Positions 9,701 to 38,766 of a DNA stretch of 64,000 bases are shown here, piece by piece; position 1 is the stretch's first letter; each line of letters begins with the position of its first letter. Under the pieces are notes generated by a model. That model searched no databases and was not told the origin of the DNA. It was given only the letters and a program-made list of their open reading frames with translations. Source of the DNA: Chloroflexota bacterium. GTDB taxonomy: Bacteria; Chloroflexota; UBA11872. A program made the position numbers and the translations under genes. The DNA lies in assembly GCA_034422315.1 (NCBI GenBank), contig DAOUJT010000006.1:5911-69910 (forward strand), given 5' to 3'.

Positions 9701-9740
9701 GTCCTCGGCGCGCGGCAACTGAATGCCGCGCGCCGAGGAC
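9701..9740. other. Perfect 16-bp GC-rich stem-loop (GTCCTCGGCGCGCGGC-aactgaat-GCCGCGCGCCGAGGAC) in a ~400-bp intergenic region upstream of the capsid-like gene.
   Basis: Seen directly in the sequence. No flanking T-run. Lies between divergent genes. Confidence 0.5.
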
Positions 9741-10863: not shown

Positions 10864-10895
10864 GGCTGGGCGATTCCAGGAGGAGGTAGCGGCAC

Positions 10896-11147
10896 ATGCA
10901 CGCTCCCATCATCTGGATCAGGCGCCGCCCGGCGCGGCGCCTGATCCACCGCTTTCCCGGCGCGGAGGGCGGACGCCAGATCCTGGTGATCACGCCGGAT
11001 CGCCAGGAAGCGCAGGACACGGCGCTGGCCATGCGCGAGCGCCAGGCGGCGCGGCTGCACGACCACGGTACAGCCGATCTGGACGCGCTGGACGCGCAGC
11101 GATCGGCCTGGGGCCGGCGCGGCGCCAAGCCCTCGGAGGCCAGCTGA
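10896..11147 (+). CDS. Small hypothetical protein (83 aa) within the phage-like module.
   Basis: Strong SD GGAGGAGG upstream. Its stop overlaps the next start (TGATG). Confidence 0.5.
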   Translation: MHAPIIWIRRRPARRLIHRFPGAEGGRQILVITPDRQEAQDTALAMRERQAARLHDHGTADLDALDAQRSAWGRRGAKPSEAS

Positions 11148-14749: not shown

Positions 14750-14760
14750 GAGGCCCCTGT

Positions 14761-16196: not shown

Positions 16197-16231
16197 AAGG
16201 CCGGCTCCGTTTGGCGTACGGAGCCGGCCTT
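16197..16231. terminator. Perfect 14-bp stem-loop (AAGGCCGGCTCCGT-ttggcgt-ACGGAGCCGGCCTT), preceded by a second hairpin at 16172-16189. Candidate terminator of the phage-like operon.
   Basis: Located 34 nt after the stop at 16163. No strong U-tract. Confidence 0.45.
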
Positions 16232-16345
16232 CGGTCGTTAGAGCGGCGAATCAACGCTTCACGGAACGCCGGGGGCGGTCGGCGCCGTAGTAGGCTCAAG
16301 CGGCCGCGCAACGCGGCGCGGCGCAGCCCCAAGGAAGGGGCGGCG

Positions 16346-17977
16346 ATGGTCGGTATCCGAGGCCGAACCACGCGCGCCACGGGGCGCTTCTTTGGCTTGG
16401 CTGGCGCGACCCTGCTGACCGTCGTCTTGCTGGCCTGCGGCGCCGACGGGCACGAACCGGGCGCGACCGATCTGGCAGCGGTTGCCGCCGTCGTCGACCG
16501 GTTGGGCGCCTCCGACGATCCGCAACAGGAGTTTGCCGAACTTCCGGCTGAAACCCGCCAATCGGTCATTGACTACCTGAGGCTCGAAGAGACGGAGTCG
16601 TCTGGCGGCGGCGGTCCCACGACCCCGATCAACGCGCCGGAAAACTGCGAACGGCAGGCATCGGGGTACGTGGCTCGCAACGCGCACGGGCGCGAGCTCT
16701 GGACGTACGAGTCCATTACCGAGTGGTGCTGGGCCGACGGGATCATTACCACGGCGCCGGTCTTCACGGTCAACGCGAAGATCCATGCTCCCCTGTGGGA
16801 ATTCGCCGGCCACGTCGAACGGGAGGAATCCGGCGGCCAAGGCGAGGCGGAGCACAGCGACGTGGCGGAGGGTCTGTTCCGGCTCTGCCCGGAGGCTCCA
16901 GACAGTTGCGTTCAGGACGAAAGCGTTCGGGTCAAGAAACGGCAAGACGGCGACGGCGGATACGGCTCGGAGACCTCCGACATCGACCACAGCCCCGAAC
17001 CGTCAGGCCCTTGGACCCGCCCAGGGTATTACCTGGCGTTCCTCGTCTATATCCCGCTGGCCGCCACGCCGCTGATTGCCGGGGACGTCATGCGCCGGAA
17101 GTCGCCGCGCGGTTCCGCCGCCTGGGGGCTGGGGGTCGTGGCCACCGCCCTGGGCGTGCTGGTCTCGCTGTACGTCGCCGTGATGGTGGTCTATACGGCG
17201 ATCTTCAGCATCGGGTCGTTGTTCGGCTCGGATTCGACATCGGTGTCAATGACAACGAGCGTCGAGCGGGTCGAGGTGATGGAGGTCCCGATCGAGGAAA
17301 CGGTGGTGGCGCCGGTGGAGACGCCGGCGGTCGGGGGACAACCCGGAAGCTCGGCAGCGGCCAGTGGGCAATCCGGCGCCGCACCGCCGCCCAGAGATTC
17401 CGCAGGGCCAGGGCCGCGCGCCGACGAATGCACGGATCACGAGGTCAGGCTGACGGCGCGCAACCTATTCGGCCAGCCGGTGTGGAGCTACCGATCCGGA
17501 ACCTGGTGGTGTTGGGACGGGGTGGAGATTACGGACGAGCCCAACGTTTCCACGTGGACCTTGTCGCAGGGTCTGTTCTGGAACCCCGTGGACGACAATA
17601 CCGAGGAGTACGGCGGCCAGGGCGAGTGGACGCATAGGGACACGGTCTACCTGACCTTCGAACTCTGCGTCCCGTTGATTGGATGCACTCAGCGCGACAA
17701 TCAGTTGCTTCGAAAGTCCCAGCACGCCGACGGAACGTCCGCCGTCGACGACTTGCCAAGGCAGGATTCATATCCAGCCGCTTTGTTCTCGCTGATTGGT
17801 CCGCTGGTAGTGGCCCTGACGCTGCTGGTTATCGGTCGGGTGCTGCGGCGGGGCGCCGAACGCGGTGCGCTGGCCTGGGGGTTCGGCGTCAGCGCCACGT
17901 CGCTGGGAGTCTTGATGCTGACGCTCCTCGTTGTCACGGGGCTGTTCTTCGTAGCGGCCAGCCATACGGTGGGATAA
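16346..17977 (+). CDS. Lipoprotein or membrane protein carrying two copies of a W-x-[YF]-x-S-x-T-WCW-x-G Cys-containing domain. Each copy is followed by an R-rich/GS-AWG-GV TM segment.
   Basis: Lipobox LLAC after the signal peptide. Internal duplication: ELWTYESITEWCWADG... and PVWSYRSGTWWCWDG.... Each copy is followed by RR..RGSAAWG(L/F)GV..LGVL TM helices. Confidence 0.6.
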   Translation: MVGIRGRTTRATGRFFGLAGATLLTVVLLACGADGHEPGATDLAAVAAVVDRLGASDDPQQEFAELPAETRQSVIDYLRLEETESSGGGGPTTPINAPENCERQASGYVARNAHGRELWTYESITEWCWADGIITTAPVFTVNAKIHAPLWEFAGHVEREESGGQGEAEHSDVAEGLFRLCPEAPDSCVQDESVRVKKRQDGDGGYGSETSDIDHSPEPSGPWTRPGYYLAFLVYIPLAATPLIAGDVMRRKSPRGSAAWGLGVVATALGVLVSLYVAVMVVYTAIFSIGSLFGSDSTSVSMTTSVERVEVMEVPIEETVVAPVETPAVGGQPGSSAAASGQSGAAPPPRDSAGPGPRADECTDHEVRLTARNLFGQPVWSYRSGTWWCWDGVEITDEPNVSTWTLSQGLFWNPVDDNTEEYGGQGEWTHRDTVYLTFELCVPLIGCTQRDNQLLRKSQHADGTSAVDDLPRQDSYPAALFSLIGPLVVALTLLVIGRVLRRGAERGALAWGFGVSATSLGVLMLTLLVVTGLFFVAASHTVG

Positions 17978-18041
17978 GTCATGCCCAAACCCCGTGGACC
18001 GTGCCGCAACGCAACTCCAGGCAGGGTGGAGGAGCGAGGTA

Positions 18042-19166
18042 ATGCCAGCCGGGCCTGAGCCGCTGCTGGCGGGTATCGCCTACACCCTGCTGATCGTCGT
18101 CCCAATCTGCGCGGCGGCTTTTATCGCGGGGTGGGTACTCCGTCGGTCGGGCGGGCACGAGTCGCTGGTCTGGGGGTTGGGCGTCATCGTCACGGCTTGG
18201 GGCGCCGCCCTGGCCCTTGAGCATGGTCTGCGGATCCTGATCTTCGAAGCTCGGCTGTTTCCAGTCAGTGGGGTGACTATCACCGTGCTTTACTTCCCCC
18301 TGACCAACGCGATCCCACCGATTGTCGCGGCGCTCGGCGCGGGTGTGGTCATGTTGAAAGCGGCGGAGCGAGGCTCGACGACCTGGGCGCTTGGCGTTGT
18401 TGGCGTGGCCTTTGGTGCAGTTGGCCTTGTCAGGGCAATCGCCCCTGTGGCGATCTACCTGCCGACGGCTATTGGATCGCTGGGATTGGGATCCGTTGTC
18501 GAAGTCGAGACCGTGGTCACAGAGATTTCGGTTGAGGAATTCGACGCGCGATCCGCGTATAGGGACAGGGTGACGGTTGAGGACGGCGTGTGTGAGGTGC
18601 ATCGCCGGGGGATCGAAGGCCACAACCTGATCGGGCAGCGGCTGTGGACGTTTCACTCAGAGACACGGTGGTGCTGGAACGGCCGCGAAGTCGGCGCCGA
18701 CCCATCGTACTCGCCCACAGTCAGCGCCTCCGTGGATTCTCACATTCCCTTCGTAAGGGGTGGCTTTCCCGTGGATCCATCGCCTAACGATTCCGAGCTT
18801 CCCTGGGAGCTCGGCGACTGGGCGACCCAAGTCATCCACGTGTGCCCGCCGTTGCTGGAATGCGTGCAAAACGCATATGCGACCGTAGAAAAGCGCCAGT
18901 TTTCGGATGGGTCGACCACTGTGGACTACCCAAGTCTGACGGACCACTCGCAGCGCAGTCCCTGGCACCCGGTGCTGGGCCTGCTGCCTTCGATTGTCAT
19001 AAGTACGACGGCGCTGGTTACCGGTTGGATCCTGCTACGACGGTCCCGGCGCGGATCGGCGGCCTGGGGATTCGGTGTCGTCGCTGTTGGGCTGGGAGTG
19101 CTGGTCCCGATCCTGGTTGTTGTGGTCGGCGTGTTTTTCCTGACGACCAGCTACACCGTGTTTTAG
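18042..19166 (+). CDS. Paralogous membrane protein with one WCW Cys domain and three copies of the R..GS..WG.GV TM motif.
   Basis: RLWTFHSETRWCWNG. C-terminus LRRSRRGSAAWGFGVVAVGLGVLV...TTSYTVF nearly identical in pattern to the upstream gene's C-terminus ...AASHTVG. GGAGG SD. Confidence 0.6.
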   Translation: MPAGPEPLLAGIAYTLLIVVPICAAAFIAGWVLRRSGGHESLVWGLGVIVTAWGAALALEHGLRILIFEARLFPVSGVTITVLYFPLTNAIPPIVAALGAGVVMLKAAERGSTTWALGVVGVAFGAVGLVRAIAPVAIYLPTAIGSLGLGSVVEVETVVTEISVEEFDARSAYRDRVTVEDGVCEVHRRGIEGHNLIGQRLWTFHSETRWCWNGREVGADPSYSPTVSASVDSHIPFVRGGFPVDPSPNDSELPWELGDWATQVIHVCPPLLECVQNAYATVEKRQFSDGSTTVDYPSLTDHSQRSPWHPVLGLLPSIVISTTALVTGWILLRRSRRGSAAWGFGVVAVGLGVLVPILVVVVGVFFLTTSYTVF

Positions 19167-19595
19167 CGAGTCGCGGCCGCAACCCCAGGACGCGCCCAGC
19201 GCCAGCGCAGACAGGACAGGCCAAAACAGACCGGGGAGGGGCAGGCAGCCTTTGCGGGCAGGTTGGTCCGGGACGATGTCGGATGGGAAGTGGCCGGGAT
19301 AACGCTCCTGTAGGTCGGCGTTGGTGGCGATGGGGGTGAGGCGCAGGCCGGGTTTGTGTTCGAGGACGTACCAGGCGACGGGTGGACGACGGCGGCGGTC
19401 GGTGACGCGCGGCGACGTGGTTTCGACGGCGCGTGGATGAACATCCGCGGCAGGCTGCCAGCGCAGCAGGGCGGTGCGCTCGTCGAGTTGGGAGCGGGTG
19501 ATCAGTTCGATTCGGCAGTCGTCGAACTGGCTGCGCAGGAAGCGCGCCTCAGCGCTGTCGAAGTCACCGACCAGTTCGACCGACCTGTCGCGCAT
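19035..19595 (-). CDS. Hypothetical protein translationally coupled to tsaC. Its 3' end overlaps the convergent membrane-protein gene by ~130 bp, so the C-terminal extent is uncertain.
   Basis: ATGA start/stop overlap with tsaC. No recognised family. Confidence 0.4.
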   Translation of the reverse strand: MRDRSVELVGDFDSAEARFLRSQFDDCRIELITRSQLDERTALLRWQPAADVHPRAVETTSPRVTDRRRRPPVAWYVLEHKPGLRLTPIATNADLQERYPGHFPSDIVPDQPARKGCLPLPGLFWPVLSALALGASWGCGRDSLKHGVAGRQEKHADHNNQDRDQHSQPNSDDTESPGRRSAPGPS

Positions 19596-20218
19596 CAGTG
19601 GGGAGGCATGGGCGGGCGGACGGCGGGGACCACGGCCTGAATGGTCGGTGCGTCCACGGCGCCGGCGCGCAGGATCAGCGGGGGATCCTGCGCAAGGTCG
19701 ATCACGGTTGAGGGCGCGCCGGCCCCCGGGCCGCCATCCAACACCAGGTCCACCAGGGTTCCCACCGCGTCGGCGGCCGCCTGGGCGGTCATGGGCGGCG
19801 GCTCGGTGTGCAGATTGGCGCTGGTGCCCGTAAGCGGGGAACCGACGAGGCGTATCAGTTCGCGCACCACGCCGGAAGCGGGAACGCGGACGCCGACCGT
19901 TTCGCCAGGGCCAAGCAGCCGCCGGTCAACGCCCGGGCGGGCCGGCAGCACCAGCGTGACGGCGCCTGGCCAGAAGGCTTGAGCGAGGCGATGGGCGTTG
20001 GGCGACATGTGGGCGATCTCGCGAGCCTGGGCCGCGCTCTCGACAAGGATCGGGATGCCCCCGCCGGGGCCGCGGGTCTTGATGCGAAGGACGCGCGCCA
20101 CGGCCGGGGGGACGCGGATACTGGCGGCCAATCCGTAGAGGGTGTCCGTTGGGATGGCGGCAACCCCGCCGTCAGCCAGCAGTCTGGCGCACCGAGTTAC
20201 CGCAACTGTCGACGCCAT
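19595..20218 (-). CDS. tsaC: L-threonylcarbamoyladenylate synthase (YrdC/TsaC/Sua5 family).
   Basis: AIPTDTLYGLAASI...GPGGGIPILVE...WPGAVTLVLPA...SPLTGTSANLHTEPP is the YrdC domain signature. Confidence 0.85.
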   Translation of the reverse strand: MASTVAVTRCARLLADGGVAAIPTDTLYGLAASIRVPPAVARVLRIKTRGPGGGIPILVESAAQAREIAHMSPNAHRLAQAFWPGAVTLVLPARPGVDRRLLGPGETVGVRVPASGVVRELIRLVGSPLTGTSANLHTEPPPMTAQAAADAVGTLVDLVLDGGPGAGAPSTVIDLAQDPPLILRAGAVDAPTIQAVVPAVRPPMPPH

Positions 20219-20726
20219 CCCGTCACGCAGGGGGCGCGGCGTCAGGCGGGTTGAACTGTCCAGCCATGAGGGTGGGCCAGTGAACTCCTCAGCACGTCGA
20301 ATGGTCAGTCGCCGGTCGCGCACCGGCCGGGCGGCAGCGGTGCCGCCATGCCAGATGATATTTCGCGCCGGGCCACGACCGTTGAATGGAAGCCGACCAC
20401 CCGGGTGTGTCGTCAGGACGACGCGGCACGGTCGTTGCCGTGCACCCCGGGGACACAGGTTTCTGCTAGGCTACGCGAACCTATTCGCAAGTTGGCGGTG
20501 CTGCCGTCCGCACAAGGCCAAACCGTTCTGCCTACGATGCCGATATCAAATACTGAGATACACGTCTCGGGCAATGATGTCGTGGGCGTTACGGTCGTCA
20601 ATGGGCCCGTGGGCAGTAGTGGCCTCGAACTCTGCGCGGCCTGGGCCCGCGAAACGCTGTCGCGTCCGACGATGACCTCGGCCCCACGCGTAGGAGACTG
20701 CTGGAGCAGGCAAGGAGACGAACCCC

Positions 20727-21071
20727 ATGAGCGTTAGCACCGAGTGGGCGTGGAACGATGAAGCCATCGTGGTCACCGCGGATGGCCGGGTGGACGGTAC
20801 CAACGCCCGCGATTTCCAGAGTGCCCTGGAGGCCGTGATCGAGGCCAGCGACCAGGCAGTGATTCTGGACATGGAGCGGCTGACGTACATCAGCAGTGCG
20901 GGGCTGCGGGTGATCCTGCTGGCGGCGAAGTCGCTGCAGCGCAAGGACGCCACGCTTACCATCTGCTCGCTGTCGGATCCGATCCGCGAGATCTTCAGCG
21001 TGAGCGGCTTCGACCAGATCATCCCCATTCACGCCACCCAGGCCGAAGCGCTCGCCGCCCGCAAGAGCTGA
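20727..21071 (+). CDS. STAS-domain anti-sigma-factor antagonist (SpoIIAA/RsbV-like).
   Basis: ILDMERLTYISSAGLRVIL...VSGFDQIIPIHAT is a typical STAS domain with a phosphorylatable Ser. Confidence 0.8.
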   Translation: MSVSTEWAWNDEAIVVTADGRVDGTNARDFQSALEAVIEASDQAVILDMERLTYISSAGLRVILLAAKSLQRKDATLTICSLSDPIREIFSVSGFDQIIPIHATQAEALAARKS

Positions 21072-21185
21072 GCCCGGCGTGCGTGGCGGACGGCGACGGG
21101 GCCGATCCGCGAGAGGCCGAACGGGGTACACGCCGACAGCAACGCGGCCTGTCCTGTTGCCTGTCAGCAGGAAGCCTGAGACCAA

Positions 21186-21530
21186 GTGAAGCTGAGTGTG
21201 GTGAACGTTACGGGGAACGGGGTGATGGTCGTCGCGATCGAGGGCCGAGTCGATAGTTCCAACGCCCAGCGGTTTGAGCGGGTGCTGGATGCCGTGGCGG
21301 ACGCCGGCAAGCGGGGGATCGTCCTGGACCTGGAGAACCTGACGTACATCAGCAGTGCGGCGCTGCGCGTGCTGCTGGGACTCACCAAGGCCCAGGCGCG
21401 GAAAGGCGGCACCCTCACGGTCTGCACCGTGCCGGAGTCCCTGCGCAAGGTTCTCGAGGTGAGCGGCTTCGATCAGATCATTCCCGTGCATGACTCCCAG
21501 GCCGAGGCTTTGGCCGCATGTTCAAGCTAG
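21186..21530 (+). CDS. Second STAS-domain anti-sigma-factor antagonist paralog.
   Basis: VLDLENLTYISSAALRVLL...VSGFDQIIPVHDS. Confidence 0.8.
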   Translation: MKLSVVNVTGNGVMVVAIEGRVDSSNAQRFERVLDAVADAGKRGIVLDLENLTYISSAALRVLLGLTKAQARKGGTLTVCTVPESLRKVLEVSGFDQIIPVHDSQAEALAACSS

Positions 21531-21591
21531 CAATCACCGATACCACGACGGCGGCGCCCGATCCGGGCCATTCCCTCGCGAACCTGGCGGC

Positions 21592-22488
21592 GTGACCGTG
21601 GACGCGGGGTCCCCATCGAAAATCCTGGTTGTCGACGACGAGGCTGACCTTGAGGTGCTGATGCGCCAGCGGATGCGCCGGAGCATCCGAAAGGGCCAGT
21701 TTGAGTTTGTGTTTGCCCGCAACGGCGTGGAAGCGCTGGCGCGGCTACGGGAGAACGACTTTGACGTAGTTCTCTCGGATATCAACATGCCAGAGATGGA
21801 CGGACTGACCCTGCTCCAGCAGATTCCGGATGTGGATCCGGAGGTGCGATCGGTGATCGTTACGGCCTACGGCGATATCGACAACATCCGATCGGCCTTG
21901 AACCGCGGAGCGTTTGACTTCATCACCAAGCCCATCGACTTCCGGGACTTGCGCGCCACGATTGAGCGGGCCCTGGAGCACCGGGCGCTCCTGCGCAGCG
22001 CGACGGAGTCGAGTGGCGACGGCCGGGTGGAAACTGCCAACGACCGACGGGCGATGGCCGGTGCCCCGGTGCTGATCCACATGGAGCACGATGGCATGTA
22101 CGCGGATGACGCGGATGAGGGCAGGCCGCCGGCGAGGAGTGGCATCAAGATTTCGGTGCTCAATGCAACCCCGGACGGAGCCGTCGTAGTTGCGCTGGAA
22201 GGGCGCGTGGACGCCAACACCGTGCGGCAATTCGAACGCGCCATCAACGTGGTGAGCAAGGCTTGCAAACTGGCCATGATTCTCGACTGCCGAAAGCTCG
22301 ACTACATCAGCAGCGCCGGGCTTCGCGTGGTGCTGGGGCTGTCCAAGTCCCTTCGACAAAAAGGGGCCGAGTTGGGCCTTTGCGCGGTGACCGAGCCGGT
22401 CCGCAAGGTCTTCAATGTGAGCGGCTTCGATCAGATCATTCCCGTGCGTGACACTCAGGCCGAGGCGCTGACCGCATGTGCAAGTTGA
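21592..22488 (+). CDS. Response-regulator receiver domain fused to a C-terminal STAS domain.
   Basis: REC: KILVVDDEADLE...VVLSDINMPEMDGLTLLQ...AYGD...GAFDFITKP. C-terminal STAS: LDCRKLDYISSAGLRVVLG...VSGFDQIIPV. GTG start inferred. Confidence 0.75.
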   Translation: MTVDAGSPSKILVVDDEADLEVLMRQRMRRSIRKGQFEFVFARNGVEALARLRENDFDVVLSDINMPEMDGLTLLQQIPDVDPEVRSVIVTAYGDIDNIRSALNRGAFDFITKPIDFRDLRATIERALEHRALLRSATESSGDGRVETANDRRAMAGAPVLIHMEHDGMYADDADEGRPPARSGIKISVLNATPDGAVVVALEGRVDANTVRQFERAINVVSKACKLAMILDCRKLDYISSAGLRVVLGLSKSLRQKGAELGLCAVTEPVRKVFNVSGFDQIIPVRDTQAEALTACAS

Positions 22489-22554
22489 ACTCCGCCTGCC
22501 TCATCCGGGGGGAATTCGCCCGGGCCATGGCACGGGGAACATGGGGGTGAAATC

Positions 22555-23727
22555 GTGGTAGTCAAGCCTCCGTACAAGATCCTGGTCGTTGACGATGAGC
22601 CGGACCTTGAGCCGCTCATGCTGCAGCGCATGCGTCGCAGTATCCGACGAGGCGAGTACACGTTCGTGTTTGCGCGGAACGGAGTCCAGGCCCTTGATCG
22701 ACTGCACGCGGACGACGACATCGACATGGTGGTGTCGGACATCAACATGCCGGAGATGGACGGGCTGACGCTGCTTCAGCAGATACCCAAGGTCGACCCC
22801 AACATCAAGTCCATCATCGTTTCCGCGTATGGCGACATGGAGAACATCCGGACGGCCATGAACCGCGGGGCCTTTGACTTCGTGACCAAGCCCATTGATT
22901 TCCGCGACCTGCGGGTGACGATCGACCGCACGCTGCAACACCTGATGGAGTGGCGCGAGGCACTGGCGTCGCGCGACCAACTGGTGGCGCTGCAGAACGA
23001 GCTGAGCGTCGCCAGCAAGATGCAGCAGTCGATTCTCCCCACCCACTTTCCGGAGAGCCCCGACTACCAGCTCTTCGCCAACATGGAACCGGCCCGCAGC
23101 GTTGGCGGTGACTTTTTCGACGTCGTGATGCTGGAGAACGATCGCATCGGCATGACCGTTGCCGATGTGTCCGACAAGGGCGTGCCCGCCGCCCTGTTCA
23201 TGATGTCGACGCGAACCCTGATCAAGGGCTCGGCGATTGGATCAGCCGGTCCCGGCGACGTGCTGCGCGAGGTCAACGACCTGCTGTACGAGGACAACGA
23301 GACCGAGATGTTTGTGACGGTGCTCTACGCGGAGTACAACCCGGCGAACGGTGAATTCACCTATGCCAGCGGCGGGCATGACCCGCCCTTGCTGGTCAAG
23401 CCGGACGGCACGTCGTCATCCCTGCCCTTGACCGGCGGCATTGCCCTGGGCCTGCTGCCCGACCTGGAGTATCGGCAGAACAGCGTCACGCTGGAGCCGG
23501 GCGAGACCATCGTGCTCTACACCGATGGCGTGAGCGAAGCGATGACCAGCACCGAGGAGCAATTTGGCCTGGAGCGGCTGCAAGCGGCGATGGCGGACGG
23601 CCCCGGCGATGACGCGCGAGCGGCCAACCAGGCGATCTTTCAAGCGGTGAGTGACTTTGTGGGAGACACCCCGGCGTCGGACGACATTACCTGCCTGACG
23701 TTTCGCCGTACGGGGGGTGGGGGATGA
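22555..23727 (+). CDS. Response-regulator receiver fused to a PP2C-type Ser/Thr phosphatase (RsbU/SpoIIE-like).
   Basis: N-terminal REC nearly identical to the upstream REC. PPM motifs GGDFFDV, GMTVADVSDKG, LYTDGVSEA and ASDDITCL. Confidence 0.85.
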   Translation: MVVKPPYKILVVDDEPDLEPLMLQRMRRSIRRGEYTFVFARNGVQALDRLHADDDIDMVVSDINMPEMDGLTLLQQIPKVDPNIKSIIVSAYGDMENIRTAMNRGAFDFVTKPIDFRDLRVTIDRTLQHLMEWREALASRDQLVALQNELSVASKMQQSILPTHFPESPDYQLFANMEPARSVGGDFFDVVMLENDRIGMTVADVSDKGVPAALFMMSTRTLIKGSAIGSAGPGDVLREVNDLLYEDNETEMFVTVLYAEYNPANGEFTYASGGHDPPLLVKPDGTSSSLPLTGGIALGLLPDLEYRQNSVTLEPGETIVLYTDGVSEAMTSTEEQFGLERLQAAMADGPGDDARAANQAIFQAVSDFVGDTPASDDITCLTFRRTGGGG

Positions 23728-24143
23728 GCCTCACGCGCACCGTCGTGATCGAGACGAGGCTGGCGGAACTGACGCGACTGACCGAGGTGGTGGAGAATCT
23801 GGGTGAGGAAGACGACTGGTCGCCCGGTCTGGTTGGCAAGGTGAACTTGGTGCTTGAAGAGTTGGCCATCAACACCATCAATCATGGTCACGACGGCGGG
23901 CTGCACGAGATTTCCTTTACCTTTAGCTCCAGCGACGATGCCTTGACCATCGAGATGGTGGACGACGGTAAGCCGTTCGACCCCCTGACCGAAGCGCCCG
24001 TTCCGGACGTGAACGCGCCGATGGACGAACGGCCGATCGGGGGACTGGGGGTCTTCCTGGTGCGGAAGCTGATGGACGAACTGACATATCGGCGGGAAGA
24101 AGGCCGCAACCACCTGACGCTCGTCGCCTATCGGGCGGAATGA
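23724..24143 (+). CDS. Anti-sigma regulatory factor / Ser-protein kinase of the GHKL ATPase family (RsbW/SpoIIAB-like).
   Basis: 139 aa. ELAINTINHG (N-box) and GGLGVFLVRKLMDE (G2 box). ATGA overlap with the phosphatase gene. Confidence 0.75.
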   Translation: MSLTRTVVIETRLAELTRLTEVVENLGEEDDWSPGLVGKVNLVLEELAINTINHGHDGGLHEISFTFSSSDDALTIEMVDDGKPFDPLTEAPVPDVNAPMDERPIGGLGVFLVRKLMDELTYRREEGRNHLTLVAYRAE

Positions 24144-25426
24144 CTCGGTTGGCCCCCGTGCCCAGGGCATGGCTGCTCGCAGCACTAGGGATTGGGGGCC
24201 TTGCTGCCATCGCGATCGTGGTCTGGGCCATGCTGGCGGTGGGTGGCATGACGGTAACGACCGTTAGCGCGCCGGCGCCGCCGACGGCCCAGGTGGACGC
24301 GACTGCCTCCGTGATAGGCGCGGCTTCCGCTCCCGCGGCCGGTGTGTCTGATGAACGCGTCCTGTTCGGCCAGTCGGCCGCGTTCAGCGGTCCGGCCAGC
24401 GAGCTGGGCCTGAACATGCGTTTGGGCATTCAGGCCGCATTTCAGGAGGCGAACGAAAAGGGCGGCGTGCACGGTCGCCGGCTGGACCTGACGACGCTGG
24501 ATGATGCCTATGAGCCCGAGGCCGCCATTGCCAACACCAAGCAGTTGATCGAGCAGGAGAACGTGTTTGCGCTGATCGGCGCCGTGGGCACGCCGACCTC
24601 GCGTTCCGCCGTGCCCGTGGCGGTTGAGGCGAATACGCCCTACCTGGCGCCGTTTACCGGCGCGGCGTTTCTGCGCGGCGAGGATCTGCATGACGTCGTG
24701 ATCAATCTGCGGGCTTCCTACAACCAGGAGACCGAGGAGATGGTGGATCGCCTGACCAACGACCTGGGGATCAGTCGAATTGCCTTGCTGTACCAGGACG
24801 ATTCCTACGGGCGAGCCGGCTACAACGGCGTGCAGGCCGCCCTGGAGCGGCGCGGCATGACACTGGCCGCGGTTGGCGTGTATCCGCGCAACACCACGGC
24901 CGTGAAGACCGCGCTGCTGGACCTGCGCGAGGGGCAGCCGGAAGCCGTGATCATGGTTGGCGCCTACGAACCGGTGGCTGCCCTGGTTGCGTGGTCACGG
25001 CACCTGGGGTTCATACCGGTGTTCATGACCATTTCCTTTGTCGGCAGCAACGCCCTGGCCCAGGAACTGGGGCCGGAGGGCGCCGGCGTCTTCGTCACGC
25101 AGGTGGTGCCCTTTCCCACGGACACGTCGCTGCCGGTGGTTCAGGCCTACCATCGCGCGTTGGCCGAGTTCGATCCAGACGCTGTTCCGGGCTTTGTTTC
25201 CTTCGAGGGCTATCTGGCTGGCCGTCTGACCATCCTGGGCCTGGAGCGGTGCGGACGCGAGCTGAGCCGTGAGTGCTTCCTGAACAGCCTGCGCAGCGCC
25301 GAGGAGATCGATGGGTTCAGGCTTCACTACGACGATGCCGACAACCAGGGCTCCGATGCGGTGTTCCTCTCGGTCATTGGCGCGGACGGTCGCTACCGCT
25401 CCGTCACCAGACTGTCGAGTTCGTGA
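24140..25426 (+). CDS. LivK-like periplasmic substrate-binding protein (branched-chain amino acid-binding fold, type I PBP) with an N-terminal membrane anchor.
   Basis: ATGA overlap with the kinase gene. LFGQSAAFSGPASELGLNMRLGIQAAFQEANEKGGVHGRRL...FALIGAVGTPTS matches the Leu/Ile/Val-binding family. Confidence 0.75.
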   Translation: MTRLAPVPRAWLLAALGIGGLAAIAIVVWAMLAVGGMTVTTVSAPAPPTAQVDATASVIGAASAPAAGVSDERVLFGQSAAFSGPASELGLNMRLGIQAAFQEANEKGGVHGRRLDLTTLDDAYEPEAAIANTKQLIEQENVFALIGAVGTPTSRSAVPVAVEANTPYLAPFTGAAFLRGEDLHDVVINLRASYNQETEEMVDRLTNDLGISRIALLYQDDSYGRAGYNGVQAALERRGMTLAAVGVYPRNTTAVKTALLDLREGQPEAVIMVGAYEPVAALVAWSRHLGFIPVFMTISFVGSNALAQELGPEGAGVFVTQVVPFPTDTSLPVVQAYHRALAEFDPDAVPGFVSFEGYLAGRLTILGLERCGRELSRECFLNSLRSAEEIDGFRLHYDDADNQGSDAVFLSVIGADGRYRSVTRLSSS

Positions 25427-25428
25427 GC

Positions 25429-27615
25429 ATGTTCGACAGACTGAAACGCTTGCTTGAGGCCCGCTATCGCCTGTCGACCCAGTTGTACTTCGGTATCGGC
25501 GGCGCGGTGGCGCTCACGGTGGCTGCCAGCATCGTCGGGCTGGCGTCCTTTACACAGGTCGGCGAGGCGCAGAGCCGGGTCAACGAGGGAAGCGTGCCTG
25601 AACTGGCCGCGGCCTTCGGCGTGGCCGAATACAGCAGCACGCTGGTGGCCGCGGCGCCGCGCCTGGCGGCGGCCGCCAGTGGCGACGAGGTGAATGAGGT
25701 CGCCCAGAACATCGAGGGTTCGCGCCAGGATCTGGAGGTGCTGTTCGCCATCTTGAATCGCAGCACCGGTGACCCGGAGCGAACCCAGCGCCTTCGGCGC
25801 TACGCCGACACGCTGCTTTCCAACATTGACACGATCAAACGCGAGCGGTTTGACCTCTTCGACCTCGGCGAGCAACGGCAGGCCCTGCGAACCGAACTTG
25901 AAGACCTTCGAAGCAGCCTGGAGGGCGTGATCGTCCCGGCCCTCGACGACCAGTTGTTTTACACGATGACAGGTTTTCGGGCGATCGAGGAATTGCCGCC
26001 AATCCGCCAGGTGTACTTCTCCGAGCCTGAACTCAACCGGTACCGACGCCTGGCGGAACTGCAGTCGGACGTCAACATTGCGACGCAACTGCTGGCCAGT
26101 GCCTTTACGTTATCCAGCCCTTCCCTGATTGAGCCGTTGCGCGAACGGTTCGAGGCCTCGGCTCGCCGTATCGAACGCAACCTCAATGGGCTCTCGGATT
26201 CCGAGTTTTACGCCGAGCTGGTGCCGCTCTTTGACCGGCTCTTTGAGGTTGGCACGGGTGAACCCAGCGGCTTCGATGTGCTTGAACAGGAACTCACCCT
26301 GCTGGAGCGCCAGCAAGTGTTGCTGGCAGGCAACCGCGCCCAGGCTATTGAACTGCTGGATGAGGTCGACGGCCTGGTGAATGCGGCGCGCGCCAGCGCC
26401 GACGAGGCGACGCAGAGTTCGACCGACACCATCGCCACCGGCCGCTTCCTGCTGCTGGTCATCGGAGCGATCAGCGTCGGCGGCGCGCTGCTGATTGCCT
26501 GGCTCTTCGTTGGCCGATTCCTCTTGCGCCGCCTGCAAATGCTGTCCGACTGGATGCTCCGCATGGCCGGCGGCGATCTCGAGACTCGCGTCGAAATGAC
26601 CGGCCGCGACGAGGTGGCGGACATGGCTGCGGCCCTGGAGGTCTTTCGTCGTCACGCCCTTGAAGTCCAGCGACTGAACCTTGTCGAGAAGCTGGCCGAT
26701 GAACTGCAGGACAAGAACGAGCAGTTGGAAAGCGTGCTTGGTGATCTGCAGAAGGCGCAGGACCAGATCGTGATGCGCGAGAAGCTGGCGGCGCTGGGTG
26801 AACTGACCGCCGGGGTGGCCCACGAGATCCGCAACCCGCTCAATTTCGTCAAGAATTTTGCGGAAGCTTCGGAAGAGCTGCTGGAGGAGTTTCAGGAGGT
26901 TCTTGAAGAGAGCGGCGACAGTCTGCCGGAGGCTGACCGCGAGATTATCGAAGAGGTGTCACAAGACCTGACCGACAACCTGGCGCGCATTCGTTCGCAC
27001 GGCGACCGCGCCAACCGGATCGTGCAGGACATGCTGTCCATGGGCCGGGGCTCGGGGGACCGATCGCCCACCGACATCAACCAGTTGGTGGACGAATACG
27101 CGCGGCTGGCCTACCACAGCGCGCGGGGTATGGACCAGAACTTTCAGCTCAGTATTGAGCGGGACTTTGACGACGCCGTTGGGGAACTCAATGTTGTATC
27201 CCAAGACTTGGGACGCGTCTTCCTGAACATGGTGGCCAATTCGTGCTACGCGACCGACGCGCGACGCCAGGCGTCCAAGGCGGACGACGGGGACGCACCA
27301 TTCATGCCGGTGGTCTGGCTGGCTACCCGGCGGCATGAGGACCACATTGAAGTCCGCATCCGCGACAACGGCGGGGGCATGCCGCCGGACGTGGTTGAGA
27401 AGATCTTCAACCCCTTCTTTACCACCAAGCCCACGGGCCAGGGCACCGGGCTGGGCCTTGCCATGTGCAGCGACATCGTGCGCCAGCACGGCGGCCACAT
27501 CAGGGTCGACGTGGAGGACGGCGAAGGCACCGAGATGATGATCGACCTGCCGCTGGTGCCGCCGTCGGATACCGCCGAACAAGAAGCCGATTCCCTACTC
27601 ACACCCTCCGCGTGA
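25429..27615 (+). CDS. Sensor histidine kinase: 2 TM helices, a large periplasmic domain, HAMP, HisKA and HATPase_c.
   Basis: H-box ELTAGVAHEIRNPLNF. G-boxes DNGGGMP and GTGLGLAMC. The ATG lies 3 nt after the SBP stop. Confidence 0.85.
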   Translation: MFDRLKRLLEARYRLSTQLYFGIGGAVALTVAASIVGLASFTQVGEAQSRVNEGSVPELAAAFGVAEYSSTLVAAAPRLAAAASGDEVNEVAQNIEGSRQDLEVLFAILNRSTGDPERTQRLRRYADTLLSNIDTIKRERFDLFDLGEQRQALRTELEDLRSSLEGVIVPALDDQLFYTMTGFRAIEELPPIRQVYFSEPELNRYRRLAELQSDVNIATQLLASAFTLSSPSLIEPLRERFEASARRIERNLNGLSDSEFYAELVPLFDRLFEVGTGEPSGFDVLEQELTLLERQQVLLAGNRAQAIELLDEVDGLVNAARASADEATQSSTDTIATGRFLLLVIGAISVGGALLIAWLFVGRFLLRRLQMLSDWMLRMAGGDLETRVEMTGRDEVADMAAALEVFRRHALEVQRLNLVEKLADELQDKNEQLESVLGDLQKAQDQIVMREKLAALGELTAGVAHEIRNPLNFVKNFAEASEELLEEFQEVLEESGDSLPEADREIIEEVSQDLTDNLARIRSHGDRANRIVQDMLSMGRGSGDRSPTDINQLVDEYARLAYHSARGMDQNFQLSIERDFDDAVGELNVVSQDLGRVFLNMVANSCYATDARRQASKADDGDAPFMPVVWLATRRHEDHIEVRIRDNGGGMPPDVVEKIFNPFFTTKPTGQGTGLGLAMCSDIVRQHGGHIRVDVEDGEGTEMMIDLPLVPPSDTAEQEADSLLTPSA

Positions 27616-28082
27616 CGCGGCCCGGCCGTAGCGCCGGTTTCTAGAACTCACGCGCCCCGTTCGTAGTGAGCCTATTCCATTCATGGTGCGCCGGTAGGAC
27701 CGTGAACGGCCCTGCGACCGGCTCAGAGCGAACGGAGCCACCACTGGGTCGCAGGTTCTGAAGCACGTGCCTTGCGCCCGTCCTCACTCCAAGCCGCCCA
27801 CTCACCGCTGGCCTCGCTGTTGCCCCGTGCCTCCTTCATCACGCCGAGAGCCTCGCCAAGAATCGCAAGTGCCGTCCTCGGTAAGGTCCAGCGGCGTCTG
27901 TAGTCCGCAGCGCGCGATACCGCATGACCAACGGCCAAGCGCCAGGCGATTCCACGCACGCCCAAGCCACTAGGCCAGGGGCAAACGCGTCAACTTCGCT
28001 TCAAGGATTGGCATCGTAGGTTGCCAGATACGATTGTGGCTCTGCGAGAATCCCGATGGTAAGCGTCAGGCCGACGACTCAA

Positions 28083-28664
28083 TTACGATGATGACATTAC
28101 CGCTACGATGACTACTAGTGTGGCTACTTGCCCGAGCAACAGCGCCCCTGTTGCGAGCCATAGCCCCCGGGAATGTTTGGCGTGGGATTCCGGAATCGAC
28201 CGCCTTAAGAAGCTGGTCATCTTCGAGATATCCCGCTTCGCTTCTTGCCGTGCCCTGGACTGAGCTTCGCGAAGCGCCGCAATTTCACGCTGCGCTTCGG
28301 CCTGCGCTGTAGATTGCGCCTCGCGGAGTGCGGAGATTTGCTCATCCAACCCATTGGCGGTGACAGCAAGTTCTGCCAGGATAGGGCTGTCAAGCAGTTT
28401 GGCGCCAGCCCTCAGAATCTCATCCGCGAGGCGCACATGCTGCGTTGCTTGGTCCAGCAAGGCCTTGGCGCTGGCGCTGTAGTCTTCGACCGCCCGCGCC
28501 GTCTCGGATAGCGACTGCGCGCGGGCCTCGGACGTCTTCTCCGCCGCGCGCAGCGACATGAGATGTCGGCCTGTCTGATTCAGCAACGTCTCGGCCTCCG
28601 CGAAGCGCCGCACGACCTCGTCCAATTCCAGCGAGCGGTCGTTGTTCAATCGCTCACCTACCAT
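28083..28664 (-). CDS. Coiled-coil protein with a C-terminal transmembrane anchor. Translationally coupled to the upstream helicase gene.
   Basis: Heptad-rich, with repeats AQSTAQAEAQREIAALREAQSRARQEAK. C-terminal TM GLWLATGALLLGQVATLVVIVAV. 11-nt overlap with the helicase ORF. Confidence 0.55.
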   Translation of the reverse strand: MVGERLNNDRSLELDEVVRRFAEAETLLNQTGRHLMSLRAAEKTSEARAQSLSETARAVEDYSASAKALLDQATQHVRLADEILRAGAKLLDSPILAELAVTANGLDEQISALREAQSTAQAEAQREIAALREAQSRARQEAKRDISKMTSFLRRSIPESHAKHSRGLWLATGALLLGQVATLVVIVAVMSSS

Positions 28665-31600
28665 GTCCGCCCTCCCATGGTTGCTCCGTCAGCGATCCAA
28701 GAAGCTGAACCGTCCTGGTAAGCCGATCGGTGAGCGCCAGTATGCACAATCCCAGTTCGCCGCCGCCCTCGAGCGACCGGTTGACGAGCTGCTGCCGAAC
28801 TGCAGGCGCTTTCCCTGACTGCTCCAAGGCAAGCGTCAATGCTGTCAGCGTGGCTAGCCTGCGCTCCGCCATCCAGTCGCGGAGACCTGCCGCTCCCTGT
28901 TCGATCCCATCGTCCGACACGCTGTAGTTCTCATGGGCAAGCGTGAACGAGGATGCAACGTGGGAGGTGAACTCGTTTAGGTTTCCGTCTGGGATTAACG
29001 CCTCGCTGAGGCCACGGGTCAGCAGCAGTCCCGGGTGGTCCGGGTAGGACTCGAGCAGGCGACCGCTGCTGCCGCGCAACTCGTGCGCCTCGGCAGCCCC
29101 TAGAGTGTCGGCCGTCGCCCGCAGCCAGGCGTCGTAGTCGAAGTACGGGCGGTCGATCAGCTTCTCTAGCACCGGCGCGATGTCGCCTTCCGTCAGGTAA
29201 TCCAGGATGCGTTTCCTGAATTCCGTATCGGGACGGGCCCGTGTAGCGTGGACGGCCAGCCAGAGTTCCCGAAGCGCACGCCGGCGTGCGCGCTCGATCT
29301 CGTCATAGACGAACTCCAGGAGCAGGCGCCCGCAGCCGAGCACGGCGTCACGCAGCGGCTCGGCCTCGTACCGGTTTGCCTTCCGGCGCTCGTTTTCGAC
29401 GCGTTGGATGTTGTGGCGCCGCACGTAATCGAGGTAATGCTCGACAACGGTCGGAGCGTCGATAAGATTCAAGTCCAAGGTGAACGACCTCGAACTCCAC
29501 TCAACCCAGTACTTACCAACGATGCCGAGGACTTGGAGCCGATAGACGGCGCGTTCACGGCTGGTCTGTGTTTCATTCTGCCAAGTGAGGTTGGCCGACT
29601 CCCTGTTGCCGAGGTCAGGAAGATCGTCCACTACTCGTCGCAGCGCCGCTTGGTCCTCTGGAACTCCCGGGAAGCTGTTGAGGTGCATCCAGAGTTGGTT
29701 GGTAACGTCATCCCGTTCACCCCAAGGCAAATATTTGACAACCCGACGGGCTTCCTCTATATCTCGGTCATCTGCGAGTAAACGTCGGATACGATCCTCG
29801 TCGTACTCGATCACCAGCAGAACACATTCAGCGTCCTGGCCGTCGCGTCCCGCACGTCCCACCTCTTGGTAATAGCCTTCGATGCTGCTGGGCATGCCGT
29901 AGTGGACGACGTACCGAATGTTGGGCTTATCGATGCCCATGCCAAACGCCTTGGTCGATACGAGTAACGGGCTTTCGTTCTCCATGAACTGACGTGCATT
30001 CTCACGTTTTTCCCTCTCCCAGTCGCCGGGAAAATGCCTAGGCGCAGTTCCCGAAAAAATCCTAGGATTCAGACCTATACCGGAGTACGAGTCCGCTAGC
30101 AAATCATCTATTTCGACTACGCCGAAACTGCCATTGACGTGGGGACAGAATACGATTCCGGAGTACGTGTTGTGACCCTGGGATTGGAAGAAATTCTGCT
30201 GCGGTATATTGAAACGAGGCGGCAACTGTGAAAGTGCGCCGCACAGCGCGGCGTGCGCGGATTCAGGCTCAGCTATGACGATTCGATAGTGTAGTTCCCG
30301 CCGATCGAAGCTCGCAGGCTTGACCACCGCATGCTCGGACTGTGAATCGTCGATGTCCAATTCCAGCAGCACCTCCTTGAGCACGGCTCGCGAAGCGGTA
30401 CCGGTGAGGGCCAGTACGGGAAGCTGCGAATCCCTGGCGACATCACGAACCGTCGCGCCAAGCCTGAGATAGGCGGGCCGAAAGTCGTGCCCCCACTCGC
30501 TGACGCAGTGAGCCTCGTCAATCACCGCAAAGTTGATTCCGCGTCCAGCGAATGCCGCCGCAGCCAACCGCTGCTGAAACTGCCGTTGCTGTAGCCGCTC
30601 CGGCGCGCAGAAGACGAAGAGCGCTTCACCGGTACCCACGGCCGCTAGTAGCGATGCTTGCTGTCCCTGTCTCGTCAGGTACGAGGAGAACTGCGCAACT
30701 CGCTCGATTCCATACCCGCGCAATCCCTCCGCCTGGTTTTCCATCAGGGCAATCAGTGGATCGATCACCAGCGAGAGGCCCGGCAAACACAGGCCGGCAA
30801 GCTGGTAGATCAGGCTTTTGCCCGCGCCGGTGGGCAGCAGCACGGCACAGTCGCGACCCTGCAGGATTTCCCTAATCGCCTCCATCTGACCTTCGCGGAA
30901 GTCCTTCTTGGCGAACACGGACCACAGCACCTGGCGCAGCGCCCGCGGGAGGCCCGCCGCGTCCGATGGTGACCGCGCATCGGCCGGCAGATGCTCCCAG
31001 ACGAGGTCCACGGGCAGAAATGCACTGCGGACGATGATCTGCGGCGGCTTGCCGAGCGCCGGCAGGCTCTCGCCGGGCGCGCGGTGGGAGTCAAGGCGGA
31101 TCACCAGGTCCGCACGTTCCCCATCCAGGTAAGCGCCATCCGCTTGCTCGCCGAGCGCCGTGTAGCCCTCATCCGGCGTGCGCTGGAGGTCAAGCGATAA
31201 TTCGCCGCCTTCCAGTTGAATGCGGTCCGGACAGGCGCCACTGCCGGCAATCACATCCAGGGCCAGCATGAGACTTAGGTAGCGCGGCAGAGACTCGACC
31301 GACCACGCCGAGCAGCCCTGAAGCTCGACGCGCCAACAGGGGCCCGAGAGCAGCCCTGCGCTCAGCGCCTCGGTGACCGCGGCCATGATGCGGTGCAACT
31401 CGACTGGGCCGTATGCCAACTGCCATCCCTGGCCAGTGGTAAGCGGCGGCGCGGCGGCCGACTGCAGCCGGCGGAACACTTCACCGAGCTTGGGTCCATC
31501 GCGCGTACGCATCTCGGCGGCAGGAATCCGTACAACGTCTATTCCGGACGCTCTCAGTGAGGCGTCACGTTCTTCGTCCTGCTCAATCGACTCGGTGTGC

Positions 31601-32451: not shown

Positions 32452-32654
32452 CGGTCTTCGCTAGCCTCTACGGTGGTAGGAGCGCACTGTCGGGTGTCAC
32501 TGAGTCATCTAGCCCCGTCATGATCATGGGGGAATGACGCTGGGCTACGCAAAGGTCTCCGGCGGGAATGTCAATAGCGGATGGTTGCTCTCAGTCCGAC
32601 GAAGGGCGAGCGGGGCAGCCCGACCGAGCGCGGAGCTTCGTCACCAACTACGAA

Positions 32655-35976: not shown

Positions 35977-36022
35977 AGGTGGCGGAACTGACGCCGACGG
36001 CCGTGTGCTCAGCGGTCCGGCC

Positions 36023-37981: not shown

Positions 37982-38005
37982 TCAACTGCCCAACGTCTAT
38001 CCGGC

Positions 38006-38758: not shown

Positions 38759-38766
38759 GCGCGCGC

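Follow-up and report, generated by a model that had tools for sequence, protein, structure and literature searches.

Partner switches in which a two-component system (TCS) controls a PP2C phosphatase, and which have no sigma factor gene beside them, are already known (PMC10950880, PMC3999984). In Mycobacterium smegmatis, the histidine kinase (HK) RsfS phosphorylates the receiver (REC)-PP2C protein RsfR, lowering RsfR activity on the phosphorylated STAS protein RsfB; RsbW2 only phosphorylates RsfB, and the genes for sigma F and its anti-sigma factor lie outside this locus (PMC10950880). Here we describe a seven-gene signalling cluster at positions 20727-27615 on the forward strand of a 64-kb stretch of Chloroflexota DNA (the window), which encodes a similar set of proteins together with a solute-binding protein (SBP) and a REC-STAS fusion. 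As in M. smegmatis, the predicted route runs from a membrane HK through a REC-PP2C protein to a phospho-STAS protein, a small RsbW-type kinase is encoded beside a STAS gene, the locus contains no sigma factor, and several antagonists would act in parallel. This likeness is one of gene logic, and no orthology at the sequence level is claimed. Unlike the window cluster, the M. smegmatis system has a CHASE3 input without a binding protein, one STAS protein, no REC-STAS and two convergent operons, and its output (the anti-sigma factor RsbW1 and sigma F) is known.

Two further systems resemble the cluster in part. In the Bacillus cereus RsbK-RsbY-RsbV-RsbW-sigmaB pathway, a sensor kinase activates the REC-PP2C protein RsbY, which drives a STAS/RsbW switch (PMC4574943); unlike in the window, RsbK is a cytoplasmic/hybrid kinase, sigB belongs to the locus, only one STAS protein is encoded and an SBP is absent. 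The Rhodobacter capsulatus proteins RbaV, RbaW and RbaY likewise comprise a STAS protein, an RsbW-like protein and a REC-PP2C protein without a nearby sigma factor gene; no sigma partner was found by two-hybrid analysis, the authors weighed a non-sigma output, and the phenotype concerned gene-transfer-agent production and stationary-phase viability (PMC3999984). Unlike in the window, rbaY is unlinked from rbaVW, and neither an SBP nor a cognate kinase is known for the system. PP2C/kinase switches that are controlled by a receiver and act on STAS proteins are also found in Pseudomonas (HsbR/HsbA), Vibrio (SypE/SypA) and Anabaena (HenR/All4160), and in these a cognate sigma factor is either not the target or not the only one: HsbA acts on FlgM, All4160 on a biosynthetic enzyme, and the target of SypA is non-sigma. 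HsbR and SypE differ from the window proteins in joining kinase and phosphatase in one protein, none of the three systems has an SBP input, and their biology (biofilm, motility, heterocyst envelope) differs as well. Given that TCS-driven switches have been characterised and that non-sigma targets are documented, the general logic of the window cluster is not new in kind. What looks new is the SBP/TorS-like input module, the REC-STAS fusion and a link to nitrogen genes that was seen in relatives of the cluster and not in the window.

As shown in Table 1, the cluster consists of seven open reading frames (ORFs) on one strand, all with high third-position GC, in a sequence of 65% GC. A first-pass annotation, made from the DNA letters and a list of ORFs, had given the gene order as STAS, STAS, REC-STAS, REC-PP2C, RsbW-like kinase, SBP and HK, and this order was borne out by Pfam domain matches. 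The same annotation had described the last four genes as translationally coupled through two ATGA overlaps and a 3-nt gap. The coupling and both overlaps, at the REC-PP2C/kinase junction (23724-23727) and the kinase/SBP junction (24140-24143), were found as described, and the gap measured 2 nt (SBP stop codon at 25424-25426, HK ATG at 25429). The ORF of REC-STAS opens at 21490, from where it would overlap STAS2; its orthologues begin at the equivalent of GTG 21592 or 21598, which makes GTG 21592 the most likely start. Catalytic and phospho-acceptor motifs are intact across all seven proteins, and the cluster is a real, well-formed signalling operon. A promoter and terminator scan of 20200-28200 gave counts not above those in shuffled sequence, and no RNA element was found in an Rfam scan of 19500-28700 at E<=0.1.

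Table 1. Genes of the signalling cluster, with the Pfam matches (E-values) on which the assignments rest.
Gene product	Position	Strand	Length and start	Pfam match
STAS1	20727-21071	+	114 aa	STAS 2.7e-21
STAS2	21186-21530	+	114 aa, GTG start	STAS 3.2e-20
REC-STAS	21592-22488	+	298 aa, from GTG 21592 (most likely)	Response_reg 1.1e-27; STAS 6.3e-20
REC-PP2C	22555-23727	+	390 aa, GTG start	Response_reg 3.3e-25; SpoIIE 7.5e-53
RsbW-type GHKL serine kinase (putative)	23724-24143	+	139 aa	HATPase_c_2 1.6e-24
Membrane-anchored LivK-fold SBP	24140-25426	+	428 aa	Peripla_BP_6 4.6e-55
Sensor HK	25429-27615	+	728 aa	HAMP 4.3e-11; HisKA 1.5e-10; HATPase_c 6.5e-23

The first-pass annotation had read the cluster as a partner-switching module fused to a ligand-binding two-component sensor. 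Comparison with other genomes revealed not a one-off fusion of two systems but the elaboration of a five-gene cassette (STAS, REC-PP2C, RsbW-like kinase, SBP and HK) that is conserved across phyla and recurs in more than 60 loci. This five-gene core is complete in many Dehalococcoidia, in Alphaproteobacteria and in Rhodothermales metagenome-assembled genomes (MAGs), with SBP identities of 50-72%, and it was found on about 40 further metagenome contigs. Longimicrobiales carry a split form, in which STAS and kinase occupy an operon of their own that is divergent from the rest; Gemmatimonadaceae were represented by a short contig only, and an Acidimicrobiales locus was without kinase and STAS. 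Besides the window, more than 40 related loci encode the HK, the REC-PP2C protein, STAS and its kinase together. Eighty loci were kept from the genome scan, most of them matching the receiver domain only, and 24 clustered as cassette loci; REC-PP2C was present in all 24.

The window is part of a 110.9-kb ENA metagenome scaffold. The same seven-gene cluster was found in the complete chromosome of a Chloroflexota bacterium MAG (L002) and on one contig (L082). Moreover, the cluster was syntenic in two more distant relatives (L162 and L164), where Sua5 lies upstream and a HAD hydrolase and CofD lie downstream; L164 carries the seven-gene form, and L162 a six-gene form without STAS2. From these comparisons, the likely history is one of five genes, then six with the gain of REC-STAS, then seven with the gain of STAS2, and the window cluster is a lineage-specific expansion of the five-gene cassette. 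An independent expansion to three tandem STAS genes was seen at another locus (L102).

The proteins expected to make up the switch were examined individually. REC-PP2C matched SpoIIE with 179.8 bits over profile positions 2-191 of 192, its metal-binding and PP2C motifs (GGDFFDV, DVSDKG, TDG and DDIT) are legible in the translation, and its best match among solved structures was 3eq2, a REC-PP2C response regulator. It is presumed to be a phosphoserine phosphatase of the RsbY/RsfR type, with phosphorylated STAS as its substrate. The RsbW-like protein matched HATPase_c_2 with 86.7 bits (cut-off, 27.4) and could be aligned with RsbW of B. subtilis (6m36) over all three boxes (N, G1 and G2), so that the kinase motifs on which its first-pass assignment depended are retained. 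Across 53 orthologues, conservation is at least 95% at E46 and N50 of the N box, at D80xG82 of the G1 box and at the glycines of the G2 box. The protein scored far below the equivalog cut-offs of NF003144 (40.7 versus 145), TIGR01924 (35.5 versus 155) and TIGR01925 (23.3 versus 135). We regard it as a putative RsbW-type kinase, which should not be named an anti-sigma factor.

All three STAS proteins, REC-STAS included, passed the cut-off (53.45) of TIGR00377, the NCBIfam model of the anti-sigma-antagonist superfamily, STAS1 scoring 78.8 and STAS2 80.4. In alignment, the residue that is phosphorylated in SpoIIAA, S58, falls on S57 of STAS1 (20895-20897), S57 of STAS2 and S241 of REC-STAS. Conservation of this serine is at least 95% across 63 STAS sequences from cassettes, and S57 is the predicted phospho-serine of STAS1. 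Pairwise identity among the three STAS domains was 51-55% (STAS2 versus STAS1, 51%; STAS2 versus the fused domain, STAS3, 55%). When compared with cassette STAS proteins of other Dehalococcoidia, STAS1 was 49-62% identical, and STAS2 and STAS3 were 34-50% identical; identity between STAS1 and its L162 and L164 orthologues was 90-95%. By these identities, STAS1 is orthologous to the one STAS gene that the ancestral five-gene cassette contained. STAS2, which was found in L002 and L164 and not in the six-gene L162, and which is 90% conserved between the window and L164, is a lineage-specific paralogue.

In REC-STAS, the receiver spans aa 9-141 (acceptor Asp, D63) and the STAS domain aa 185-297, S241 being encoded at 22312-22314. 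D63, T91, K113, P159, L161, I162, H163 and S241 were invariant in an alignment of 19 REC-STAS orthologues. The linker motif P159-x-L161-I162-H163 lies within PVLIHMEHDGMYADD (aa 159-173, nt 22066-22110) and could be a docking motif; the linker is otherwise variable and predicted to be disordered. In an AlphaFold2 model, both domains were folded, linker residues 141-179 had a per-residue confidence (pLDDT) below 50, and the predicted template-modelling score (pTM) was 0.48. Given the disordered linker and the low pTM, no packing of one domain on the other can be claimed. The REC-STAS architecture was found in about 26 clusters at 90% identity among the 120 best matches listed and, among those matches, appears confined to the lineage of the window. 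A genome scan with the REC-STAS alignment yielded mostly REC-PP2C genes, and apparent full-length matches in Dehalococcoidia turned out to be a STAS gene followed by a REC-PP2C gene, with no fusion. The STAS part (22144-22482) was about 50% identical to that of L164, compared with 82-95% for the remaining cassette proteins; when L162 was considered together with L164, the values were 40-50% and 75-95%, respectively. The fused STAS domain is by far the fastest-evolving component of the cassette, with its phospho-serine nonetheless kept.

A conceptual parallel to the fusion exists in the PhyR-NepR-EcfG system of Alphaproteobacteria, where an antagonist domain is fused to a receiver and an HK can act directly on the antagonist (PMC4814048). 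This is an analogy only: unlike in REC-STAS, the antagonist domain of PhyR is sigma-like, it lies at the other end of the polypeptide, and it involves no serine phosphorylation.

The receivers of REC-STAS and REC-PP2C had been called near-identical. They were found to be 74% identical in protein and 73.6% in DNA, which makes them paralogues rather than near-identical copies. Both are identical around the acceptor Asp (SDINMPEMDG) and in a KPIDFRDLR segment, presumably the beta5-alpha5 region; because of these shared surroundings, phosphorylation of both receivers by the one HK, as the first-pass annotation had proposed, is plausible. The possibility that the REC-STAS receiver is a recent copy of the REC-PP2C receiver was rejected, since it formed its own clade outside the main cassette clade in a neighbour-joining tree, a weak method applied to a short domain in which long-branch effects are possible.

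With regard to the input, the SBP carries one N-terminal hydrophobic anchor (at about aa 10-35), and its best solved-structure match was 4kv7 (E 2.6e-73); the nearest solved structures bear generic depositor names and offer no ligand information. An amino-acid-like cue had been suggested for this protein, and this was not established: the SBP scored far below the cut-off of the LivJ model (NF011933, 52.1 versus 477) and about equally against UrtA (TIGR03407, 48.6 versus 492.75), and the NCBIfam models give no basis for choosing between an amino acid and urea or an amide. No genes for an ABC-transporter permease or ATPase were found near the SBP gene. The HK is predicted to consist of a first transmembrane segment (about aa 17-41), a helical extracytoplasmic domain of about 290 aa, a second transmembrane segment, HAMP, a long HisKA (H box, HEIRNPL) and HATPase_c. 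Its H, N, G1, F and G2 boxes are legible in the translation, and no Response_reg or Hpt domain was found in it by Pfam. It matched the NCBIfam TorS model TIGR02956 over residues 19-437 (E 4.6e-49, below the equivalog cut-off), and homologous sensors scored 28-48 bits on the Pfam TorS model, above its cut-off.

This arrangement resembles that of E. coli TorT-TorS, in which the SBP gene lies beside, and its product acts through, a sensor with a helical bundle; the window HK aligns with the TorS model over its sensor and HAMP parts. TorT belongs to a different SBP family from Peripla_BP_6, and TorS, a hybrid kinase, contains receiver and HPt domains and works with a DNA-binding regulator. The window proteins differ from TorT and TorS in that the SBP is a Peripla_BP_6 protein and the HK is without Response_reg or Hpt domains. 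BasB is, like the window SBP, a Peripla_BP_6 protein, and it is used for signalling only; its partner BasT, unlike the window HK, is a chemoreceptor.

In each of the 24 cassette loci from genomes, and in most of 80 metagenome loci, the gene immediately before that of a TorS-like sensor encodes an SBP orthologue; in the metagenome scan with the SBP alignment, wherever the contig is long enough, the SBP is followed by a membrane protein with a TorS-like sensor and HAMP. The output joined to this pair varies, being HK, methyl-accepting chemotaxis protein (MCP; L146, L154, L129 and L122) and adenylate/guanylate cyclase (L151 and L159); one further locus (L136) also has an MCP output, with a sensor that had no TorS match. 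At another locus (L128), PP2C is fused directly to the sensor, and STAS and RsbW-like genes adjoin it. Given that the SBP/sensor pair is wired to several outputs and that no transporter genes lie nearby, the SBP is predicted to be a dedicated extracytoplasmic co-receptor of the HK. Moreover, the L128, MCP and cyclase forms show that SBP and sensor make up a modular input unit, one that feeds a PP2C-STAS switch. That the SBP is instead an ordinary ABC-transporter component whose position by the kinase is incidental, as its matches to ABC-type branched-chain amino-acid and urea binding proteins in Pfam and NCBIfam might suggest, is very improbable in view of the absence of a nearby permease or ATPase gene, the ATGA coupling to the kinase gene and 2-nt spacing to the HK gene, the orthologues upstream of TorS-like sensors with four different output domains, and the existence of signalling-only Peripla_BP_6 proteins such as BasB.

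Homologous HK catalytic cores adjoin homologous REC genes in dozens of Bacteroidota loci. In these (L022-L081), tandem arrays of two to five kinase genes with homologous cores lie directly upstream of a receiver pair, either REC then REC, or REC-PP2C, so that this HK/REC family is wired there in another way, with several kinases.

The first-pass annotation had noted that no sigma factor follows the cluster, and the searches agreed with this. No sigma-70-family protein was found by Pfam among 68 ORFs across the window (58 called genes, the methylase ORF 41352-43040, and further small or alternative ORFs), and tblastn with SigB, RpoE and RpoD gave no match at E<=1 in the 64 kb. The next genes downstream lie on the opposite strand, encoding a 193-aa protein and then a 1265-aa helicase. 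Also, no recurrent sigma-like family was found in the flanks of related cassette loci. Of the elements of a partner switch, the window contains STAS, a GHKL kinase and PP2C; a target that is held and released, classically a sigma factor, was not found in it and may be encoded elsewhere in the genome.

Taken together, these data favour an SBP-dependent TCS with a partner-switching output in place of a DNA-binding regulator, a chain that, taken as a whole, we consider slightly better than an even proposition. Gene content, intact motifs, a conserved and modular input and the lack of a sigma gene in the window are what was observed. Its interactions, phosphotransfer steps and direction of regulation, as well as its ligand and target, are what we infer as follows. 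The membrane-anchored SBP would capture a small extracellular ligand, at best guess a nitrogen-containing compound, and the loaded SBP would dock on the extracytoplasmic domain of the HK, as TorT does on TorS. Phosphate would then pass from the HK to the REC-PP2C receiver, and probably to the REC-STAS receiver as well. Phosphorylation of its receiver would alter the activity of REC-PP2C on phospho-Ser57 of STAS, and the RsbW-type kinase would restore the phosphate. The signal passed onward would be how much of STAS1, STAS2 and REC-STAS is unphosphorylated relative to phosphorylated, with the STAS proteins either titrating the kinase or acting themselves on an unlinked target.

Several observations weigh against this chain or against the nitrogen output considered below. 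The window HK scored 25.0 bits on the Pfam TorS_sensor_domain model, 2 bits short of the cut-off of 27. When the AlphaFold2 model of REC-STAS was inspected for a receiver that covers the STAS face in the manner of PhyR, no confident interdomain contact was found, and the model does not support a gating of the STAS domain by its receiver. Some cassettes are without RsbW-like kinase and STAS (L008, L083, L084 and L117) and others without REC-PP2C (L165 and L168), so that the wiring is not fixed. The loci cannot be counted as independent in phylogenetic terms, and sponge or marine metagenomes, in which co-transfer of islands may occur, are the source of many of them. In the window, L002, L162 and L164, the cluster has no nitrogen gene next to it. 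The window does encode an ammonium transporter (Amt, 61783-63339), which is only 34% identical to the Amt subfamily linked to the cassette in relatives and lies 34 kb from the cluster; no glnK or PII gene was found beside it, and no PII match anywhere in the window.

The likely output was approached through gene neighbourhoods, by clustering the flanking ORFs of 72 cassette loci into neighbour families. Among the commonest families from outside the cassette was Amt, present in 7 of the 72 loci (L006, L035, L098, L099, L104, L108 and L119); these transporters were 66-70% identical across phyla and had no glnK beside them. GlnE came next, in six loci (L004, L005, L007, L026, L035 and L114) and glutamine synthetase (GS) in two (L035 and L104), and amidases in several. 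The adjacency of Amt, GlnE or GS thus extends to 12 cassette loci, in several gene arrangements and at least three lineages. At two of the loci (L098 and L099), Amt, STAS, REC-PP2C, RsbW, SBP and HK follow one another on one strand. At L035, glnA, glnE, rsbW and STAS are consecutive on one strand, divergent from REC-PP2C, SBP and HK, and in alphaproteobacterial loci GlnE lies between STAS and REC-PP2C or is divergent from REC-PP2C. A short-chain dehydrogenase/reductase (SDR) family was also found in 7 of the 72 loci, but distant from the cassette, and one locus (L003) has an unrelated Amt with its own glnK.

In a reciprocal test, five genes of the linked Amt subfamily on long contigs were sampled. 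An SBP-HK module lay within 9 kb of three of the five, together with STAS and/or kinase and/or REC-PP2C; the other two share one synteny. None of the five sampled members had glnK beside it. Three further gene families recur near the cassette or the linked Amt: GPP34, a Golgi phosphoprotein 3-like protein (L004, L005, L026, L085, L107, L165 and L169), a DUF502 membrane protein (L011, L014, L015, L017, L101, L165 and L169), and a trio of CP-ATP-grasp, Alpha-E and transglutaminase proteins (L012, L098, L104 and L165).

Because of these neighbourhoods of orthologous cassettes, nitrogen assimilation (Amt, GlnE and GS) is suggested as the leading candidate output, ahead of a distal sigma/anti-sigma pair. 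We judge a target in nitrogen assimilation, direct or indirect, to have a substantial chance that falls somewhat short of even, and a target that is neither in nitrogen assimilation nor a sigma/anti-sigma pair to be rather unlikely. In its most specific form, which we regard as improbable, the proposal is that the cassette provides PII-independent nitrogen control: a nitrogen compound read by the SBP would set STAS phosphorylation, STAS or the kinase would gate a GlnK-less Amt and/or GlnE/GS, and the lineage of the window would have added the receiver-gated REC-STAS, giving the HK two routes.

The alternative that survives best, and that we nonetheless consider on the whole unlikely, is an anti-sigma partner switch whose sigma factor is encoded elsewhere. 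Here the RsbW-like protein, or a second RsbW antagonised by unphosphorylated STAS, would sequester an alternative sigma factor, and the cluster would be the upstream half of a pathway, like the M. smegmatis rsfB locus. The M. smegmatis RsfB/RsbW2/RsfR/RsfS set, with nearly the same genes, indeed acts on sigma F and RsbW1 encoded elsewhere, the B. cereus RsbK/RsbY system provides a second precedent, and the STAS proteins pass the anti-sigma-antagonist superfamily model. Moreover, the window takes in 64 kb, whereas the whole genome, going by related complete contigs of 3.4-3.6 Mb, would measure roughly 3.5 Mb, although no sigma gene was found in it and no sigma-like family recurs in the cassette flanks. 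Against a sigma target also stand the scores of the kinase, far below the RsbW/SpoIIAB equivalog cut-offs, the presence of the cassette in Alphaproteobacteria, where the related REC-PP2C/STAS/RsbW set of R. capsulatus yielded no sigma partner, and the neighbour enrichment, which favours nitrogen-assimilation genes.

Somewhat less probable still is a direct post-translational control of ammonium assimilation, in which unphosphorylated STAS or the freed kinase would bind a GlnK-less Amt and/or GlnE/GS in a PII-like role, with the SBP sensing an extracellular nitrogen compound; the direct binding step by itself we hold to be no likelier than this, and perhaps a little less so. The adjacency at the 12 loci, the linked Amt subfamily without adjacent glnK and the three positive cases of the reciprocal test speak for it. 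Regulation of transporters by STAS is known from the STAS domain of SLC26/SulP proteins and from MlaB acting on MlaFE (PMC7367683), and non-sigma targets of partner switches are documented. The case is one of adjacency only, however, and the adjacency was not seen in the window's own lineage; the GPP34, DUF502 and CP-ATP-grasp/Alpha-E/transglutaminase neighbours have no obvious nitrogen role. In the literature searched, no partner switch linked to Amt, GlnE or GS was found as a precedent, nor any REC-STAS fusion.

A further alternative concerns the added components, and we find it doubtful. REC-STAS, and STAS2 with it, would be modulators rather than outputs, serving as a sink for HK phosphate and/or as decoy substrates that buffer the STAS1 switch. 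Both are lineage-specific additions to a cassette that works elsewhere with one STAS, and the fused STAS evolves far faster than its neighbours, as the identities above indicate, with phospho-acceptor residues kept in both domains of REC-STAS. On the other side, the invariant PxLIH motif of the linker and the conservation of REC-STAS in roughly 26 clusters point to selection for a specific function, the 90% conservation of STAS2 between the window and L164 likewise speaks against a modulator role, and the independent three-STAS expansion at L102 suggests that multiple antagonists are adaptive.

Partner switches without a sigma factor are common in genomes, and for most of them input and output are unknown; the present cassette offers a defined input. 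Since the same SBP/sensor pair also serves chemotaxis and cyclic-nucleotide outputs, a single ligand identification would annotate many receptors. The linkage to Amt without GlnK, to GlnE and to GS suggests that a STAS phospho-switch may regulate nitrogen assimilation, replacing PII or acting beside it. Most carriers are uncultured marine and sponge-associated bacteria, and how such bacteria exchange nitrogen with the host is a central question. The REC-STAS fusion would represent an uncharacterised route by which an HK acts directly on the antagonist, conceptually parallel to PhyR.

The surroundings of the cluster were also inspected. Between the HK gene and the HAD hydrolase lies a stretch of lower GC (27700-32500; 0.61) that contains the two opposite-strand genes mentioned above: 28083-28664 (-), whose 193-aa product has no Pfam match, and 28654-32451 (-), whose 1265-aa product is a DEAD/Helicase_C protein with DUF559 and N-terminal paired CxxC motifs that look zinc-finger-like by eye. 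The stretch is missing from the syntenic L162 and L164, where the hydrolase directly follows the HK, and is probably an inserted mobile or defence island. Upstream of the cluster, region 9723-15813 includes a phage-capsid-like gene (10009-10863; Phage_capsid_4, 6.5e-11), followed by genes for large proteins of 407, 792 and about 350-396 aa without a Pfam match. A prophage-borne cluster was considered in view of these genes and ruled out, the whole neighbourhood being syntenic in distant relatives. The capsid-like set itself corresponds to L162 38-5295 and L164 1529-7342, is therefore not a recent prophage, and could be a domesticated capsid-based element.

Other features of the window were noted in passing. 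Two adjacent paralogous membrane proteins of 588 and 390 aa (16211-19166), neither with a Pfam match, both contain repeated modules with the pattern W-x-(Y/F)-x-S-x-T-x-W-C-W-x-G, followed by a glycine-rich transmembrane segment. An isoprenoid/hopanoid region (34966-48454) encodes a polyprenyl synthetase, a 1-deoxy-D-xylulose 5-phosphate (DXP) synthase, a radical-SAM protein with DUF3463, a squalene-hopene cyclase, an amine-oxidase-type oxidoreductase and two squalene/phytoene synthase homologues. It is broken at 39.8-43.4 kb by a lower-GC insert carrying a MazF toxin and ribbon-helix-helix (RHH) antitoxin, an Eco57I-like N6 methylase and a helix-turn-helix (HTH) protein. Finally, a SelB-type selenocysteine-specific elongation factor is encoded at 51085-52965, which implies selenoprotein synthesis.

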